From Leptolyngbyaceae cyanobacterium (lineage in GTDB: Bacteria; Cyanobacteriota; Cyanobacteriia; Phormidesmidales; Phormidesmidaceae): DNA of 64,000 bases. The notes beneath the pieces are model-generated. The model saw only the letters and a program-made list of their open reading frames with translations. It made no database searches and was not told where the DNA came from. Below are positions 50,047 through 56,930 of the stretch, piece after piece. The first letter of the stretch is position 1; every line of letters starts with the position of its first letter. The DNA lies in the NCBI GenBank assembly GCA_965263355.1, contig CBDHHL010000032.1, positions 416,001-480,000 of the forward strand. The letters are read 5' to 3'. Made by a program: the position numbers and the translations under genes.

Positions 50047-50761
50047 GTGCCCCCCCTTTTGCTTGGAGCTATGTTGTCAAAACTTAAACTCGGACAAAAA
50101 TTTACCCTGATGCTGCTGGCCGTCTTTTTAGGCGGCATCCTGATGAGCGGTATTGCCCTATCCAAGCTGCTCAACTATACAGCCCAAGCAAAGTTAACCA
50201 ACAAAGCACTGATGCTGATGGAAACCATGAACTCCGTGCGTCAGTATACCGTTGAGGAGGTGAGACCAGAGTTAGCAGACCGTAGCGAAACCGAGTTTTT
50301 GCCAGAAACCGTCCCCAGCTACTCAGCCCATAGGGTGTTCGCAACACTCCAGGCCAGCCCAGATTACCAAGACTTCTTCTATAAAGAAGCCGTTCTTGAC
50401 CCCACGAACCCCAAGGACCAGGCCGATGAGTTTGAAATAGAGCTAGTGAACTCGTTTCAGCGTGAAATTCGCGAAGAATTACATGGGTTTAGAAATGTGT
50501 GTTTACAGGGTGTTTGCCCTTGCCATCTTTCTAGTTAACTTCTGGCTCAAACGCTATGTGGTGCGTCCTATAAACCGTATGGCTGCCACTGCAGAGGCCG
50601 TCAGTACTGGCGATACCCAAGCTGAATTTGTCAAATGGTCCGATGATGAGGTGGGTAACCTGACTGATTCGTTTAACCGTATGCGTCTGAGTTTGCAGAT
50701 GGCCATGCAGCGGTTAGAGCGCCATCGTCGTAAGCGTAAAGGGAGTCCAGGGGCAGGTTAA
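50047..50761 (+). pseudogene. DUF3365 (Tll0287-like)-HAMP protein with internal deletion and frameshift
   Basis: N-part has MNSVRQYT, FLPETVPSYSA, YKEA..PTN; TM-HAMP part is in another frame; junction ~50495-50510. Confidence 0.75.
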
Positions 50762-50888: not shown

Positions 50889-52464
50889 TCATTTTGTCTT
50901 CACGCTAATCTCACTGCGTAGCTCTTTGCGAAACTCTTGGGCCTTTGCACCATCTGGAATTTCTCTAGCTAACCGGTCAACAAACCTGGGCGGACTCAGG
51001 TCTGGATAGTCCGCCAGGGTATCTTCCACAATCATGCTGGCCATGGGACCAATACAATGAGCCAGGGCCTGACGACAGCGAGTAATCAGCTCAGGCGTTA
51101 ACCCTTGCTGACGTTGTTGCAGTACGGTGTTAATCTCAGGCATTGTGTCGCTGGCGGCCAATGCTTCATCTGGGATACAAATGTGGCTTAAAAAGACCGT
51201 GGCCTGATCGGCGTCGGATATTTGTCCTGCTAGAATTTCAACAATTTCCTGGGGAGTTGCATGGGGATTGTCCTCTAATGTTTCTTCGATTACCATGTCG
51301 GCAATGGGGCCGATGCAGCGGCTAAGTTCATCACGACATTGGGCAATATAAAGACGGATCGGGTCGAGAGACATCTGCCTGCTTGGGAAGAACTGCGGCT
51401 GCAGGAAGGGGCTGAATAGGGGTGAGAGTTTTATTAAAGTCTTTAGGCAGTAACGGTGTGAGCCGCTCGAACACCTCCTGGGCAGATTGAAATCTATCCA
51501 GGGGCTGTTGCCGAGTCATGGTGGCTATAATTTTCCCCAGCTTTGGATTAATCTTTGCATGGGGTGTCCAGTCCATGTCCAGGGTATGCGAGTCCATTAG
51601 ATCGCGGGGATGCTTGCCTGTGAGGAGGACCAGCGCTGTTACTCCAAGGGCATATAAATCACCAGAGGGGGCGCATTTGCCAAACATTTGTTCTGGCGGG
51701 GAATAGCCAAATTTGCCGACGGCGGTTAATGCCTTTTGTGGAGTTTCATTCTGGGTCACTATGTCTGATAAGGAGTCAGACATAGTGTTGTTGACCAGGC
51801 CAAAGTCGATTAGGACAGGGAGGTTGCGATCGCGAGAATACATCACATTCTCAGGTGAAATATCGCGATGCATAATGTTTAGACTATGCAAGTAATCCAA
51901 CACCCTTAGCATATGGGCTAACCAGACGATCACCTCAGCTTCAGTGAACACCTTAGACTGCTTTTTGCGCTGCTGGAGCAGTTTTAGGTAGGTGACTCCG
52001 TTAATGTATTCCTGCACGATAAACAACCGTTTCGCCTGGGTAAAACAGGCCATAAACTTAGGAATTTGCGGATGGTCAATGCTGTGGAGCGTCTTTGCTT
52101 CCCGCTGAAACAGTTCAATCGCTTTTTTTAAGAATTTGCTTTGTTTTTGAATCGGGCGTAGCTCCTTGAGGACACACAGTTCACCAAACCGCTGGGTGTC
52201 TTCCGCCAGATACGAAAAGCCAAATCCACCCTGTCCTAACATCCGTTTGATGGTATAGCGCCCTGCTACTTTAGTGCCCTCAGCTAGCACTGGCGTTGGT
52301 GTTTGGGAGGCCGTTTGAACAGACGGCTGCCAATGTTTTGTTTTTTGTGCGTCAGTTGTAGCAACAGATACGGACATGCGGGCACTAAAGCCAACCGCAT
52401 CAGTCACAACAATAGCGGCTAGAGCACGCTGTCCTCGGCTAGGGGTGGGAAGGTCGCTGGGCAT
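50889..52464 (-). pseudogene. Ser/Thr kinase with truncated adenylate-cyclase N-terminus and frameshifted C-terminal repeat domain
   Basis: LAAIVVTDAVGFS cyclase stub; intact kinase motifs HRDISPEN and DFG; one extra base near 51349 separates two C..L..CIGP repeats. Confidence 0.75.
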
Positions 52465-52957
52465 GGACGTAGGGGCGTTATAAAAACGTCACATTTTTGA
52501 ACAAATGAAATCAATGGTTAATGCCTTGTCTAAGGAGTCTACAAAGATGACATGAGACGGAGATGAACTGCCGTACGAAATATCATCAAGGGAACATCAC
52601 AACGCTATAACCTTCACGCAAAGGCTGGGCATTTTCCGATGAAATCCCCTGTGACGCCCTAGAAACCGTACATCCATACAAGTCAGTAAAAGTAACCAGA
52701 AAATTGGTTCCATGCGTAGGTCTTCAAGCTTGTACAGATTTGACAGTATAAGTTTCTATTTCAATTACAAAGCTTAATCACCCTGAATTGATAGATATCC
52801 GTAAATTTATGCTTATGGATAACCTGATGAGCAGTATCAAGGAAATGAGGGTTGATATCCAGTTAATTTGGACAAGGTTTAGCGATAGCATTTAAAAATT
52901 GACGTTTTTTAACCCCCTACTTTAGTGCAAACAGCAACCCCAAAGGGCACACAACCT

Positions 52958-53815
52958 ATGGACACACAGAACCTGAGCCGAATTATCGACACCGCCTGGG
53001 AAAACCGTAGTTCGATCAATTCCAGTACATCAGGCGAAACCCGTGATGCCATTGAATATGTAGTTAACGGTCTCGATAGTGGCCAGTATCGTATTTGTGA
53101 AAAATCAGGTGATGGCTGGAACGTCAACCAATGGCTAAAAAAGGCCGTACTGATGTCCTTTCGCCTGAATGACTCCACCGTTATTTCTAGCGGTTTAACC
53201 TATGCCGAAATGGGTGACGCTCCCTGGTTTGATAAAGTCCCTTCCAAGTTTTCCGGTTGGACCCAAGAGGACTATGCCCAAGCCGGTTTTCGTGCCGTAC
53301 CCAACTGCGTCGTCCGCCGGGGATCCTACGTTGCCAGTAACGTGGTGCTGATGCCCAGCTTTGTCAATATCGGCGCATACGTTGACAGTGGCACCATGGT
53401 AGACAGCTATGTCACTGTCGGCTCCTGTGCCCAAATTGGCAAAAACTGCCACCTATCTGCAGGGGTTGTCATTGGTGGTGTACTGGAGCCTATACAGGCC
53501 AACCCCGTCATCATTGAAGACAATGTCTTTGTCGGCGGCCAAAGCGAAGTTTCCGAGGGGGTCATTGTTAGAGAAGGAGCGGTGTTAGCCATTGGGGTGT
53601 ACCTAAGTCAGTCCACCAAGATTGTTAACCGCGACACAGGCGAGATTACCTATGGTGAGATTCCCCCATATTCTGTTGTTGTACCTGGAGCATTGCCTGG
53701 TAAGCCCCTAGCTGATGGGACCCCTGGCCCTAGCTTATATTGCAACGTAATTGTCAAGACTGTGGATGACAAGACCCGGTCAAAGACATCGCTCAACGAG
53801 TTGTTGCGAGATTAG
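52958..53815 (+). CDS. dapD: Tetrahydrodipicolinate N-succinyltransferase, proteobacterial type
   Basis: [47 protein letters not shown]. Confidence 0.93.
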
Positions 53816-53867
53816 GTTGAACCTGAAACAGTCTGTTTAGGAAAACTAATTTCTAACTAGTTCAATC

Positions 53868-53959
53868 TCCCCTCTCGGGCGGGGTGCCTAGAGGGCGGGG
53901 TGGGTTGGCCGATAGCGCTCAATTTCGAAACCCACCCCGAAGCCCCTCCCAGGAAGGGA
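53868..53959. repeat. GC-rich palindromic intergenic repeat (CCCCTC..GGGGTGGGTT type)
   Basis: CGGGGTGGGTT / AACCCACCCCG perfect arms with imperfect outer arms TCCCCTCTCGGG / CCCAGGAAGGGA. Confidence 0.75.
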
Positions 53960-53998
53960 TGAATTATCGCCTAATGCATTCACTTTAAAGTCTAAATA

Positions 53999-54898
53999 AT
54001 GTCTCTTTTCCCCTTCGACCAAAAGGACGGATATCTGTGGCTCAACGGTGAAACCGTTGTCTGGAAAGATGCCAAAATTCATCCCTTGACCCACGGTCTC
54101 CACTACGCCAGTAGCGTTTTTGAAGGCGTTCGCATCTATAATGGCAAACCATTTTTACTGGCTGACCATATCGAGCGACTGCACCAGTCCACCAAAATTT
54201 TGGGCTTTGAAATTCCCTATTCCACAGATGATATTATTGCCGCTACCCACGATCTGCTCGCTAAAGAGTCCATTGATGTAGGGTATATCCGCCACTTTTC
54301 CTGGCGTGGTAGCGAACGCCTGCGGATTTATGCACCAGACACGTCCACCTGTGTAGCCATTGCCGCCTGGGCGTTTCCCACAACGTTATTTAGCATTGAG
54401 ACCAAGAAACCTTTAAAGCTCACTAGCCAGATTTCCTGGCGTAAGCCTGATCCAGCGACAGCACCTACCGTCAGTAAAGCTGGCTGTCTATATCCTATCT
54501 GCTTTATGAGCAAGCATGAAGCAGTCCAGCAAGGGTTTGATGATGCTCTAATGCTGGACTATCGAGGGCTGATTGCCGAGTCTACCGCCTCCAATGTGTT
54601 TCTGATTATGGATGGAGCTGTGCATACACCGATTCCAGACTGTTTCCTTAACGGCATTACTCGTCAAACAATTCTTAAGCTGGCAAAACAGCTTGGTATT
54701 CCTACTGTTGAGCGCCATATTAAACCAGAGGAACTAGCGCAGGCCCAAGAGGTCTTTTTAACTGGGACAACCTGTGAAATTGAGTCGATTAGCCAGATTG
54801 ATCAGCAGACATTTGCACCGTTTGGCCCAGTGACCATGCGTTTAATTGGGGCCTATAGGGACTTTGTAATGGAGCAAACGGCGGCAGTCGGTTTGTAA
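53999..54898 (+). CDS. Fold-type IV PLP aminotransferase (IlvE-like, divergent)
   Basis: THGLHYASSVFEG, catalytic Lys in SKAGCLY, LNGITR, EVFLTGT. Confidence 0.9.
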   Translation: MSLFPFDQKDGYLWLNGETVVWKDAKIHPLTHGLHYASSVFEGVRIYNGKPFLLADHIERLHQSTKILGFEIPYSTDDIIAATHDLLAKESIDVGYIRHFSWRGSERLRIYAPDTSTCVAIAAWAFPTTLFSIETKKPLKLTSQISWRKPDPATAPTVSKAGCLYPICFMSKHEAVQQGFDDALMLDYRGLIAESTASNVFLIMDGAVHTPIPDCFLNGITRQTILKLAKQLGIPTVERHIKPEELAQAQEVFLTGTTCEIESISQIDQQTFAPFGPVTMRLIGAYRDFVMEQTAAVGL

Positions 54899-54942
54899 GG
54901 TTTGTACAATATCTAATCACTCTTCAAAAGAATTTCATTTCT

Positions 54943-56145
54943 ATGTCCGTTAGTACCGTCACTACCCCTATTTTCGATCCCGTAAACGTCACCCAAGAAC
55001 TTATCCGCTGTCCCAGTGTCACTCCCGACCGAGAAGGGGGCTTAGACGTGGTCCAACGTCACCTGGAATTGTTGGGCTTTACCTGTCACCGCATGACCTT
55101 CCACAATGAGCCAGGTAGTTATGAGGTAGACAACCTCTATGCTCGCCTGGGTACTGAGGGGCCAAATCTAGCCTTTGCGGGGCACACTGATGTAGTGCCT
55201 GAAGGTAATCGTGAGCGCTGGGGAGATATTGACCCCTACAAGGGAGAAATCCGAGACGGTATTTTGTGGGGGCGGGGGACTGTCGATATGAAAGCGGGTA
55301 TCGGCTGCTTTATTGCAGCTGTTTCATCGTGGCTGGCTAAGAACAAAGACAGCTTTGACAGCTTTAAAGGCTCGTTTAGTTTCATTATTACCGGCGATGA
55401 AGAACACGAGGCCATTAACGGGACCAAACCGGTAATGAGATGGTTAGAGGCACGAGGCGAGAAACTAGATGCCTGTGTTGTGGGTGAACCAACTAATCCT
55501 CTGGAAATGGGAGACTGTGTTCACATTGGCCGACGGGGTAGTATCAACACGTTTATTACGGTTAAGGGCAAGCAGGGACATGTGGCCTATCAGCGAAATG
55601 TGCTAAACCCGGTGCCTGCAGCAGTGGCGATGGTAGCTGCCCTGCAGAATCTAACGTTAGATCAGGGCAACGAATGGTTTGAACCGTCGAATCTGGAAAT
55701 GACCCAGTTTGAGACGGCCAAATGTGCGGAAAATGTGATTCCGGCTGAGGTGAAACTGCGGTTCAATATTCGCTTTAATGATGAACAAACGGGCGAAGGG
55801 TTACAACAGTTGATTTGTGAAACCGTTGACCCGATTGCCCGTGACCATGGCACCGAGTACGATATTCGCTTTCGAGTAAGTGGTGAAGCATTTCGTACCG
55901 ATCCACAAGATACTTTTGTAGCCTTGGTACAAGACGCTGTTGAAGAGATTGCTAACCGACGACCCAGGCTAAGCACAGAAGGCGGTATCACCGATGCCCG
56001 GTTTCTGGTTACCCACTGTGTGACTGTCGAGTATGGGCCGTTGGATAACACAATGCATCAGATTGGTGAGCATATTCCCATTGCCCATATTCATGAGCTG
56101 CACCAGGTGTACGAGCGAATTATCGACAAGTTTTTTGCCGATTAA
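54943..56145 (+). CDS. dapE: Succinyl-diaminopimelate desuccinylase
   Basis: GHTDVVP, DMK, GDEE, VGEP, GRRGS, GKQGHVAY, FNIRFN. Confidence 0.92.
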   Translation: MSVSTVTTPIFDPVNVTQELIRCPSVTPDREGGLDVVQRHLELLGFTCHRMTFHNEPGSYEVDNLYARLGTEGPNLAFAGHTDVVPEGNRERWGDIDPYKGEIRDGILWGRGTVDMKAGIGCFIAAVSSWLAKNKDSFDSFKGSFSFIITGDEEHEAINGTKPVMRWLEARGEKLDACVVGEPTNPLEMGDCVHIGRRGSINTFITVKGKQGHVAYQRNVLNPVPAAVAMVAALQNLTLDQGNEWFEPSNLEMTQFETAKCAENVIPAEVKLRFNIRFNDEQTGEGLQQLICETVDPIARDHGTEYDIRFRVSGEAFRTDPQDTFVALVQDAVEEIANRRPRLSTEGGITDARFLVTHCVTVEYGPLDNTMHQIGEHIPIAHIHELHQVYERIIDKFFAD

Positions 56146-56215
56146 TTTCTATGGGCACCTTTGGGGGATCAATGCAAAGCGGAACGATTTTCGCAAAAAT
56201 ATAGACTATCGGAGT

Positions 56216-56277
56216 ACTCTGCAAGAAGAACAAAGCTCTACGGAACACTCTGCGAGAAGGGCAAAGCTCTACGGAAT
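56216..56277. repeat. 31-nt imperfect tandem repeat
   Basis: ACTCTGCAAGAAGAACAAAGCTCTACGGAAC / ACTCTGCGAGAAGGGCAAAGCTCTACGGAAT. Confidence 0.75.
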
Positions 56278-56594
56278 GCGCGCCCTTTCTAAATTTCGAC
56301 TTTCGAATTCCGAATTCTGACCTGGTTGCCAGCAACTATCCTATGATAGAGAGCAGACTTATTTCCAATTGAGACAACGCTAATGACATTAGCAACGGCT
56401 CCCCAAATTCCCAAAGAAAATCGCCTACTTTTTAACAGCTGTTCTGTTCCTTCTTTGCTGGTACCCATAATATTCACCGACCTGGAAGCTTTATCAGAGT
56501 GAGATCTCACTAGCCAAAAGTCGCATTCTGTAAAGGCTATCCTGACTATTTCACAGTTCTGTTGAATACTTAGGGTATTGTCCAAACCGGAACT

Positions 56595-56930
56595 ATGCGA
56601 CTACTCATCCAACTCATTGGCTTAGCCCTGATGCTGCTAGGCATTTACTACTTAGGTAAGAATATATTCTTTACTACAAACGTTAGCCCCTATTTCTGGC
56701 GTGGCCTTGCAGCTGACGCGTCAATCTTCTTGCTGTGTGCAGGTATTTGTTTGCTGGTATTTATGCCGCTCGGCTTTATGAAACAGTTGGGCTGGATTTT
56801 TGTTGCTGGTGGAATTCTCTGCATTTTTATCAGCAGTCGCGCCATCCTCACTCCTACTAGCCTGTGGCAGTTTTTCGTTGCCACCTCATCTATGGCGTTT
56901 GGGTACCGGTTATTTGCGACTGGGCGCTAG
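56595..56930 (+). CDS. Hypothetical membrane protein
   Basis: Four hydrophobic segments; GIYYLGKNIFFTT, PTSLWQF. Confidence 0.75.
   Translation: MRLLIQLIGLALMLLGIYYLGKNIFFTTNVSPYFWRGLAADASIFLLCAGICLLVFMPLGFMKQLGWIFVAGGILCIFISSRAILTPTSLWQFFVATSSMAFGYRLFATGR

Follow-up and report, generated by a model that had tools for sequence, protein, structure and literature searches.

A dapD–transaminase–dapE cassette in cyanobacteria as a candidate acyl-diaminopimelate pathway in place of DapL1

Cyanobacteria are regarded as making diaminopimelate (DAP) and lysine by way of DapL. In the window (the whole stretch of 64,000 nucleotides that was analysed, from a Leptolyngbyaceae cyanobacterium), three genes encode a DapD-family acyltransferase, a pyridoxal phosphate (PLP)-dependent transaminase of fold type IV and a DapE-family deacylase. 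All three are genuine, uninterrupted genes that are conserved in related genomes. Strong genomic evidence makes it very probable that this cassette is the DAP route of its host and replaces DapL1, the enzyme that converts tetrahydrodipicolinate (THDP) to LL-DAP (PMC4176475, PMC7133116). We regard the cassette as a real, conserved and unusual system, a new variant of the acyl-DAP pathway in which a core enzyme has repeatedly been replaced in nature by a longer, imported pathway. The full combination, an acetylase-type DAP route with a fold-type IV substitute for DapC that replaces DapL1, is predicted from sequence and has about an even chance of being right in all its parts. No description of this cassette or pathway in cyanobacteria was found in open-access literature listings. 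In the available main text of GapMind 2026 (PMC13759103), supplements not covered, there is no occurrence of dapC, ilvE or cyanobacter.

The features of the cassette are as follows.

52958..53815, plus strand: dapD, encoding a DapD-family THDP N-acyltransferase, predicted to use acetyl-CoA; 285 aa from ATG, TIGR00965 over cut-off
53999..54898, plus strand: gene for a PLP transaminase of fold type IV with alphaproteobacterial IlvE ancestry, a candidate N-acyl-diaminopimelate aminotransferase (DapC substitute); 299 aa, PF01063
54943..56145, plus strand: dapE, encoding a DapE-family, predicted N-acyl-LL-diaminopimelate deacylase with loop V changed from GGTS to GGIT; 400 aa, TIGR01246 and PRK13009 over cut-off

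The open reading frames (ORFs) agree with the first-pass annotation of three intact, co-directional genes, with 44 bp between the last two; dapD and the transaminase gene are 183 bp apart, and an alternative GTG start of dapD at 52925 would add 11 aa. DapD (385.9 bits against TIGR00965; curated cut-off 375.4) and DapE (384.3 against TIGR01246; cut-off 361.8) are recognized by their family models, and the metal and catalytic residues of DapE (H81, D115, E153, E154, E182, and H372) are invariant in 24 of 24 cassette and 109 of 109 other sequences. The middle protein has PF01063 as its sole Pfam match and is of fold type IV, and therefore lies outside the PLP fold type I of DapC, ArgD, and SerC. 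Its top NCBIfam model is that of PRK07544 IlvE (NF005726), for which it scores 372.7, below the cut-off of 396; it is also below the cut-offs of two further IlvE models (NF005146, 266 versus 279; TIGR01122, 243 versus 245.55).

Distribution of the cassette and of dapL1

We compared 172 genomes of the family of G002 (the main set) and 61 genomes of the family of G173, calling dapL1 where TIGR03542 was over cut-off. Statements on gene content in the genome of the window are drawn from close relatives, with which the MutS2 sequence of the window nests in a clade of 16 rows (support 100). In the main set, dapL1 is present in 134 genomes and absent from 38, and DapD (21/172), DapE (20/172), and the transaminase (19/172) are all confined to those 38. 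The two systems do not coincide in this set: the cassette is absent from all 134 dapL1 genomes, and dapL1 from all 21 cassette genomes. Likewise, 55 of the 61 genomes in the family of G173 have dapL1, and G173, the only carrier of DapD, is without it. Fisher's exact test gives p = 6e-17 for the exclusion, a value that we do not rely on because genomes are not phylogenetically independent. The first-pass annotation had considered a second lysine or DAP route, but mutual exclusion with dapL1 indicates that the cassette instead replaces DapL1.

The arrangement of the genes is also conserved. In 15 of the 22 other cassette genomes, dapD, the PF01063 gene, and dapE lie side by side and in the same order, the synteny for which the first-pass annotation had proposed a search; dapE has moved in three and the cassette is broken at contig ends in four. 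The transaminase gene stays adjacent to dapD in all three genomes with a relocated dapE. A scan of genome contigs found 15 cassette loci, 14 of them cyanobacterial at 84–88% identity, and when 401 genomes were sampled evenly across the class, DapD turned up in three, all among the carriers already found. Cultured carriers are, by record title, Leptolyngbya sp. PCC 7375, Heron Island J, and Adonisia turfae CCMR0081. An apparent truncation of DapE in G004 is explained by an N-gap in the scaffold, with the C-terminus located elsewhere. Cassette-type DapE (83–86%) also occurs in P0242, P0245, and P0246 (Symploca sp. SIO2G7, Cyanobacteria bacterium P01_F01_bin.42, and Cyanophyceae cyanobacterium), which suggests further lineages. 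In the family of G173, three genomes (G220, G223, and G230) have two or three DapL1-family matches over cut-off each.

Several observations weigh against replacement of DapL1. The lack of dapL1 and sucC in the host of the window is that of its close relatives. Moreover, in 17 of the 172 genomes both dapL1 and full-length cassette genes went undetected, and five of these genomes belong to the clade of the window by MutS2 identity. In one of the five, G049, the end of dapE is at a contig edge, and the other four (G035, G042, G044, and G050) are unexplained except by incompleteness; as a rough control for the rate of misses, MutS2 went undetected in 10 of the 172 genomes. Three of the four (G035, G044, and G050) are also without the flanking aldo-keto reductase gene and a clear orthologue of the kinase gene. 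Apparent TAG codons interrupt the transaminase gene of G047, at codon 260, and dapE of G158. Genome G035, nested in the clade of the window, is 4.1 Mb in size with one contig exceeding 1 Mb, and dapL1, the cassette, and the flanks of the cassette were not found in it.

While dapL1 is missing in all cassette genomes, dapF, the other host gene to which the first-pass annotation had drawn attention, is over cut-off in all five carriers tested, and ddh in none of the five. Hosts also keep two DapL2-like class I paralogues (PRK05942- and PRK07366-type), a further point against a need for the cassette in making LL-DAP. One passes the PRK07366 cut-off and the other marginally passes that of PRK09276, two models that NCBI names LL-diaminopimelate aminotransferase, but both paralogues are below the DapL2 equivalog cut-off (best 500.6 versus 593.25). 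Their equivalents in Synechocystis reportedly coexist with dapL1, with no DapL activity said to have been shown for them.

Origin and movement between lineages

The first-pass annotation had suggested horizontal acquisition from the resemblance of the proteins to alphaproteobacterial homologues, and both similarity and phylogeny agree. The nearest noncyanobacterial matches are 53–58% (transaminase), 64–68% (DapD), and 47–53% (DapE) identical, with the named ones alphaproteobacterial, and cassette DapD nests among alphaproteobacterial-type (alpha-type) DapDs, apart from DapH. Among the matches listed, dapD or dapE is near none of 79 noncyanobacterial ilvE-like metagenome loci, many of them shorter than the 6-kb flank, which argues that the three-gene grouping is not a common donor operon.

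Carriers are scattered across the MutS2 tree, whose 62 rows are the window and 61 members of the main set. They fall in four places: the clade of the window; G128, sister to dapL-bearing G117 (99); G034, sister to dapL-bearing G033 (100); and G161, a partial sequence on a long branch. With G173, the cassette is therefore in five separate lineages. In the tree of concatenated cassette genes (15 rows), however, G128 and G173 are inside the clade of the window, next to G040 (98/97 and 99/98), and the approximately unbiased (AU) test rejects holding them outside it (p-AU 0.024). This nesting and its statistical support indicate transfer of the cassette between lineages, and disfavor vertical descent with differential loss.

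In three lineages, the cassette is at or next to a position that dapL occupies in a relative. The order in G117 is glmM-like, GDSL-like, dapL, and HAD (the first two labels are from reading the sequences rather than from family scans), and G128 has the same flanks with the cassette and an ORF of 786 aa in the place of dapL; dapL and the HAD gene are also divergently oriented in nine further dapL-bearing genomes compared. In G158, G159, and G161, dapD follows a SagB-family gene that precedes dapL in G030. In G034, the neighbor of the cassette is a gene that borders dapL in G033, but the orientation is reversed. Conversely, no swap in place was seen for G173, which shares no neighbors with 20 dapL loci of its family, or for the clade of the window relative to the dapL loci compared, and a tblastn search of cassette loci found no remnants of dapL.

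Upstream of dapD is a conserved element that may serve as its promoter.

52878..52909, plus strand: conserved upstream element with a TA[G/A/C]CAT hexamer (52886-52891) that resembles a -10 box; putative promoter role

This 32-nt element is 49–102 nt 5' of the aligned dapD start codon in all 19 cassette upstream regions compared, that of the window included, and a two-box scan for sigma-70 promoters did not list it. We suggest that, in passing from one cyanobacterial lineage to another, the cassette took this element along and moved as a unit. The element resembles codons 4–13 of dapL, although 56 of 604 control ORF starts score equally in sum. G128 alone stands out, with 28 of 48 positions matching in frame, a level reached in 0 of 300 shuffles and in 1.5% of controls in what is a post hoc comparison.

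Predicted chemistry of the three enzymes

Every substrate, and the division of labor among the three enzymes, is a prediction. In the first step, the DapD-family enzyme would N-acylate ring-opened THDP, most likely with acetyl-CoA, to yield N-acetyl-2-amino-6-oxopimelate, using an acetyltransferase-like pocket that may have been acquired by convergence. In the second, the fold-type IV enzyme would transaminate N-acyl-2-amino-6-oxopimelate at C6 with L-stereochemistry, probably with glutamate as donor, to yield N-acetyl-LL-DAP; the long side chain with its carboxylate would be accommodated by the enlarged pocket of the enzyme, which has gained an arginine, R109. In the third, the DapE-family enzyme would remove the acyl group, giving LL-DAP and acetate, and DapF and downstream enzymes of the host would then give meso-DAP and lysine.

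The acyl donor is predicted from the pocket of DapD. In Escherichia coli, residues G163, R187, and E189 of DapD recognize succinyl, whereas an acetyltransferase of Staphylococcus aureus has V, N, and V (PMC10403215, citing Beaman 2002). Cassette DapD has V171, Q195, and E197, so that one of three succinyl-recognition residues is kept; relative to the acetyl-type pocket, V is identical, Q replaces N, and E is present instead of V. Both V171 and Q195 are in 38 of 38 cassette homologues and in none of 81 alpha-type hits, and 150 distant DapD representatives keep G163 in 137 and R187 in 133 cases. Five annotated acetyltransferases have A, V/I, N, and V at positions 160, 163, 187, and 189, compared with A, V, Q, and E in the cassette, with A168 matching five of five DapH sequences and V171 matching the V in four of five. 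Ten positions conserved in alpha-type DapDs are changed throughout the 38 cassette sequences, including T142S, W143Y, G160A, G163V, A186G, and R187Q, while the counterparts of E. coli R104, R112, D141, and E169 are kept. The protein scores 105.9 against the DapH model TIGR03532 (cut-off 231.75), and its ratio of nonsynonymous to synonymous substitution rates (dN/dS) is 0.02–0.06 where dS is unsaturated.

Sources of succinyl-CoA were also looked for in the hosts. SucC has no match at E<=1e-10 in any of the 21 cassette genomes of the family of G002, nor in 14 dapL-bearing members. The search was positive elsewhere, with weak matches in G173 and four relatives, so the cyanobacterial form is detectable; the match in a carrier, G173, is itself a point against an acetyl route. 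SucA was found in none of five cassette genomes tested. Class I CoA-transferase (PF01144) was found in none of 26 genomes searched and none of the 22 cassette genomes, with methylmalonyl-CoA mutase and other sources of succinyl-CoA not searched for.

The first-pass annotation had named a succinylase pathway with succinyl-CoA, and that label is probably wrong because the acyl pocket of DapD is acetyl-like and no standard source of succinyl-CoA was found in family carriers. From these residues and the succinyl-CoA enzymes not found, acetyl-CoA is the likely donor. A true succinylase, with succinyl-CoA from an unrecognized source and the fold-type IV enzyme as an N-succinyl-DAP aminotransferase, would fit the scores of DapD and DapE over succinylase cut-offs, the DapE residues R197, Y216, and G348, and the counterpart of E189 in DapD; these retained residues of both enzymes are odd for a pure acetyl route. 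We consider it quite unlikely, given G163V and R187Q in every cassette DapD, at positions that most distant representatives conserve, and the searches for SucC, SucA, and class I CoA-transferase in family carriers. That the same DAP route uses an acyl group other than acetyl or succinyl, such as malonyl or propionyl, or accepts several, is very unlikely. The V/Q/E of DapD is intermediate between G/R/E and V/N/V and the arginine of DapE is kept, but loss of R187 argues against a carboxylated donor, and A168 and V171 match acetyltransferases.

In total, SucC (the beta subunit of succinyl-CoA synthetase) was found in none of the 35 genomes tested from the family of G002, whether or not they carry the cassette. 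R187 and G163 are also missing from deeply diverged DapD-like proteins that fall outside the cassette clade (P0494, P0490, P0446, P0496, and others). One of them, P0494, has S, Y, A, V, and N at the same pocket positions, possibly an independent switch to acetyl.

For the fold-type IV enzyme, the predicted model (mean predicted local distance difference test score, pLDDT, of 87) matches bacterial branched-chain aminotransferase (BCAT) structures with template modeling (TM) scores of 0.85–0.87. Residues K160, Y165, F41, Y36, G43, R45, Y96, and R98 are invariant in cassette transaminases. The L-specific site of BCATs, for which the pocket elements are defined, has the catalytic lysine, the pair F36/Y164, and R40, Y95, and R97 at the alpha-carboxylate (PMC8320979), and the cassette enzyme has this core as K160, F41, Y165, R45, Y96, and R98. 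The invariant PLP lysine, the pair, and the alpha-carboxylate site point to L-specific transamination of an alpha-keto acid. A D-specific transaminase giving meso-DAP directly is ruled out by these residues, by scores below cut-off for D-amino-acid transaminase models (NF005209, 133.8 versus 320; TIGR01121, 126 versus 277.45), and by the retained dapF.

In contrast to this core, the side-chain pocket is remodeled (50 cassette homologues compared with 70 alpha-type IlvE sequences; ancestral residues are in E. coli mature numbering via alignment). The residues W126, Y129, and A258 that stabilize substrate in IlvE (W127, Y130, and A259 in the precursor; PMC9309667) are replaced by F/V, T/S/A, and T/S, respectively, in 50 of 50 homologues. 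R109 and Y111 are new in the O-pocket loop, W126 and Y129 are gone from the interdomain loop, GTAA becomes GTTC, and G196 becomes A or T. Replacements of alpha-conserved positions number 16 of 34 in the active site versus 17 of 124 elsewhere (p = 8e-5, for a set of sites taken from the literature post hoc). The gene is under purifying selection (dN/dS 0.04–0.08, with saturating dS). Each of five hosts tested has three or four class IV genes, among them a native-type IlvE that is separate from the cassette enzyme, only 27% identical to it, and over cut-off in the copy scanned; the first-pass annotation had raised the question of such a copy.

We know of no member of the fold-type IV transaminase family that acts at the DapC step. 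The proposal of the first-pass annotation that this enzyme substitutes for DapC holds as a candidate, and from its position, retention, selection, and pocket changes, the enzyme probably performs the second step. An alternative is that the acyltransferase and deacylase of the cassette take over DAP synthesis from DapL1, while host ArgD or a class I paralogue transaminates and the fold-type IV enzyme is an accessory kept by linkage or for another substrate. ArgD, over cut-off in all five cassette genomes tested, is bifunctional in E. coli and performs the DapC step there (PMC9309667), the fold-type IV protein still scores best with IlvE models, and one genome (G047) has a stop in its gene. However, the transaminase is in 19 of 21 family carriers, both exceptions having dapD within ∼300 bp of a contig end. 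Its low dN/dS, the concentration of fixed changes in the active site, a native-type IlvE already in every host tested, and the absence of the grouping from the noncyanobacterial loci listed likewise argue against an accessory, and we judge this alternative unlikely. In three of the five carriers (L022, L028, and L029), a second IlvE-type gene adjoins a regulator-looking ORF, which we take to be TrmB-like.

DapE has changed too. R197, R198, H213, Y216, N264, R277, and G348 are kept, whereas T349I, S350T, G155H, K194H, P217Q, and D375G occur in every one of the 24 cassette sequences. T349I is at the loop V threonine (T325), which is Ile in 24 of 24 cassette sequences and Thr in 109 of 109 other hits. 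Mutants of T325 in Haemophilus influenzae DapE lose activity 25- to 50-fold or entirely (PMC4012986), so the standard DapE reaction would be impaired. Conversely, R178, Y197, and G324 contact the distal, succinyl end of the substrate (PMC11270798), and their counterparts R197, Y216, and G348, which were identified by motif and not through an alignment with the H. influenzae sequence itself, are intact, which does not favor the acetyl reading.

Fixed active-site changes in all three enzymes, this loss of T325, and the NCBI names of the DapL2-like paralogues could instead mean that the cassette makes another amino acid or metabolite by acylation, transamination, and deacylation while the paralogues supply LL-DAP. 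We find this highly improbable since it leaves unexplained the absence of dapL1 in all five cassette lineages and the swap at the dapL locus, and the cassette is not accompanied by biosynthetic or transport genes. On the same grounds, mutual exclusion and the swap in place, the suggestion in the first-pass annotation of a tabtoxin-like module for an unusual amino acid is disfavored.

The predicted acetylase-type route can be compared with several known systems. With the proteobacterial succinylase branch (DapD, DapC/ArgD/SerC, and DapE) it shares DapD and DapE that pass curated cut-offs, the placement of DapD among alphaproteobacterial types, the order of reactions, and DapF downstream. It differs in the fold-type IV transaminase, a DapD without G163 and R187, a DapE without T325, and its presence in cyanobacteria as a replacement of DapL1, with no SucA or SucC found in hosts tested. 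The Firmicute acetylase branch (DapH, PatA, and N-acetyl-DAP deacetylase) has the donor predicted here, with A168, V171, and an amide at 195 matching DapH, and works without succinyl-CoA, as predicted for the cassette; the Bacillus set frees E. coli from its need for succinyl-CoA (PMC10943122). The cassette, however, is from other protein lineages, with a DapD outside the DapH group, a DapE-type deacylase, and a fold-type IV transaminase. That transaminase shares the fold and invariant core of alphaproteobacterial (PRK07544/NF005726) and E. coli IlvE, and 53–58% identity with the former, but falls below the family cut-off and has a remodeled side-chain pocket. Cyanobacterial and plant DapL1 (sll0480 type) effects the same net conversion of THDP to LL-DAP and has the same genomic position in three lineages, yet is one fold-type I enzyme without an acyl donor, whereas the cassette comprises three unrelated enzymes consuming acyl-CoA.

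We tentatively propose a wider reading, in which the cassette is a mobile, self-contained DAP module. Its succinylase enzymes may have become convergently acetyl-specific for hosts without succinyl-CoA, and its transaminase would be the first fold-type IV N-acyl-DAP aminotransferase, derived from a BCAT. DapL would have given way to the module in five or more cyanobacterial lineages, in three cases at the dapL locus itself, perhaps guided by short homology between its leader and the 5' end of dapL. If correct, the cassette would extend the enzymes known for the DapC step to a PLP fold that evolved independently, would provide a small natural set of substitutions for switching acyl-CoA specificity, and would imply that succinyltransferase and desuccinylase labels from hidden Markov models can mislead on the acyl group.

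Integrity and surroundings of the locus

In run X2, which is possibly from the source sample of the window, a single contig covers 50807-56275, including the kinase gene and the whole cassette, with zero differences. This spanning contig and the contiguous, same-order genes of relatives rule out an assembly chimera, the concern raised by the first-pass annotation. The cassette has GC of 0.48–0.51 and GC at third codon positions (GC3) of 0.48–0.54, matching seven host genes (GC3 0.40–0.65). Host-like composition and dS of at least 0.86 to relatives rule out a recent insertion into decaying DNA.

Two signaling genes upstream are decayed, as the first-pass annotation had described for the region that the cassette follows.

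50047-50761, plus strand: Tll0287-HAMP gene, decayed; relative to the L002 copy (313 aa), an internal deletion and a frameshift leave two ORFs
50889-52464, minus strand: cyclase-kinase gene, decayed; relative to the L002 copy (673 aa), in-frame loss of ∼aa 38-199 and a frameshift near aa 521

Contigs of three runs list no indel relative to the window in the cyclase-kinase gene. A link between decay and cassette did not hold, however, because relatives carry the cassette beside full-length versions of the same signaling genes.

Repeat and promoter scans found nothing above chance. The sequence directly 3' of dapE (56210-56320) contains a pair of 31-nt direct repeats and a short tandem array of 7-nt units. 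Next comes a membrane ORF of 111 aa (56595-56930) that matches no family and gave no hit in the 14 related loci. Within the cassette, the spacer from dapD to the transaminase gene (53816-53998) is a G+C-rich, repeat-like insert, and among carriers this spacer ranges from ∼12 bp (L056) to more than 400 bp (L003).

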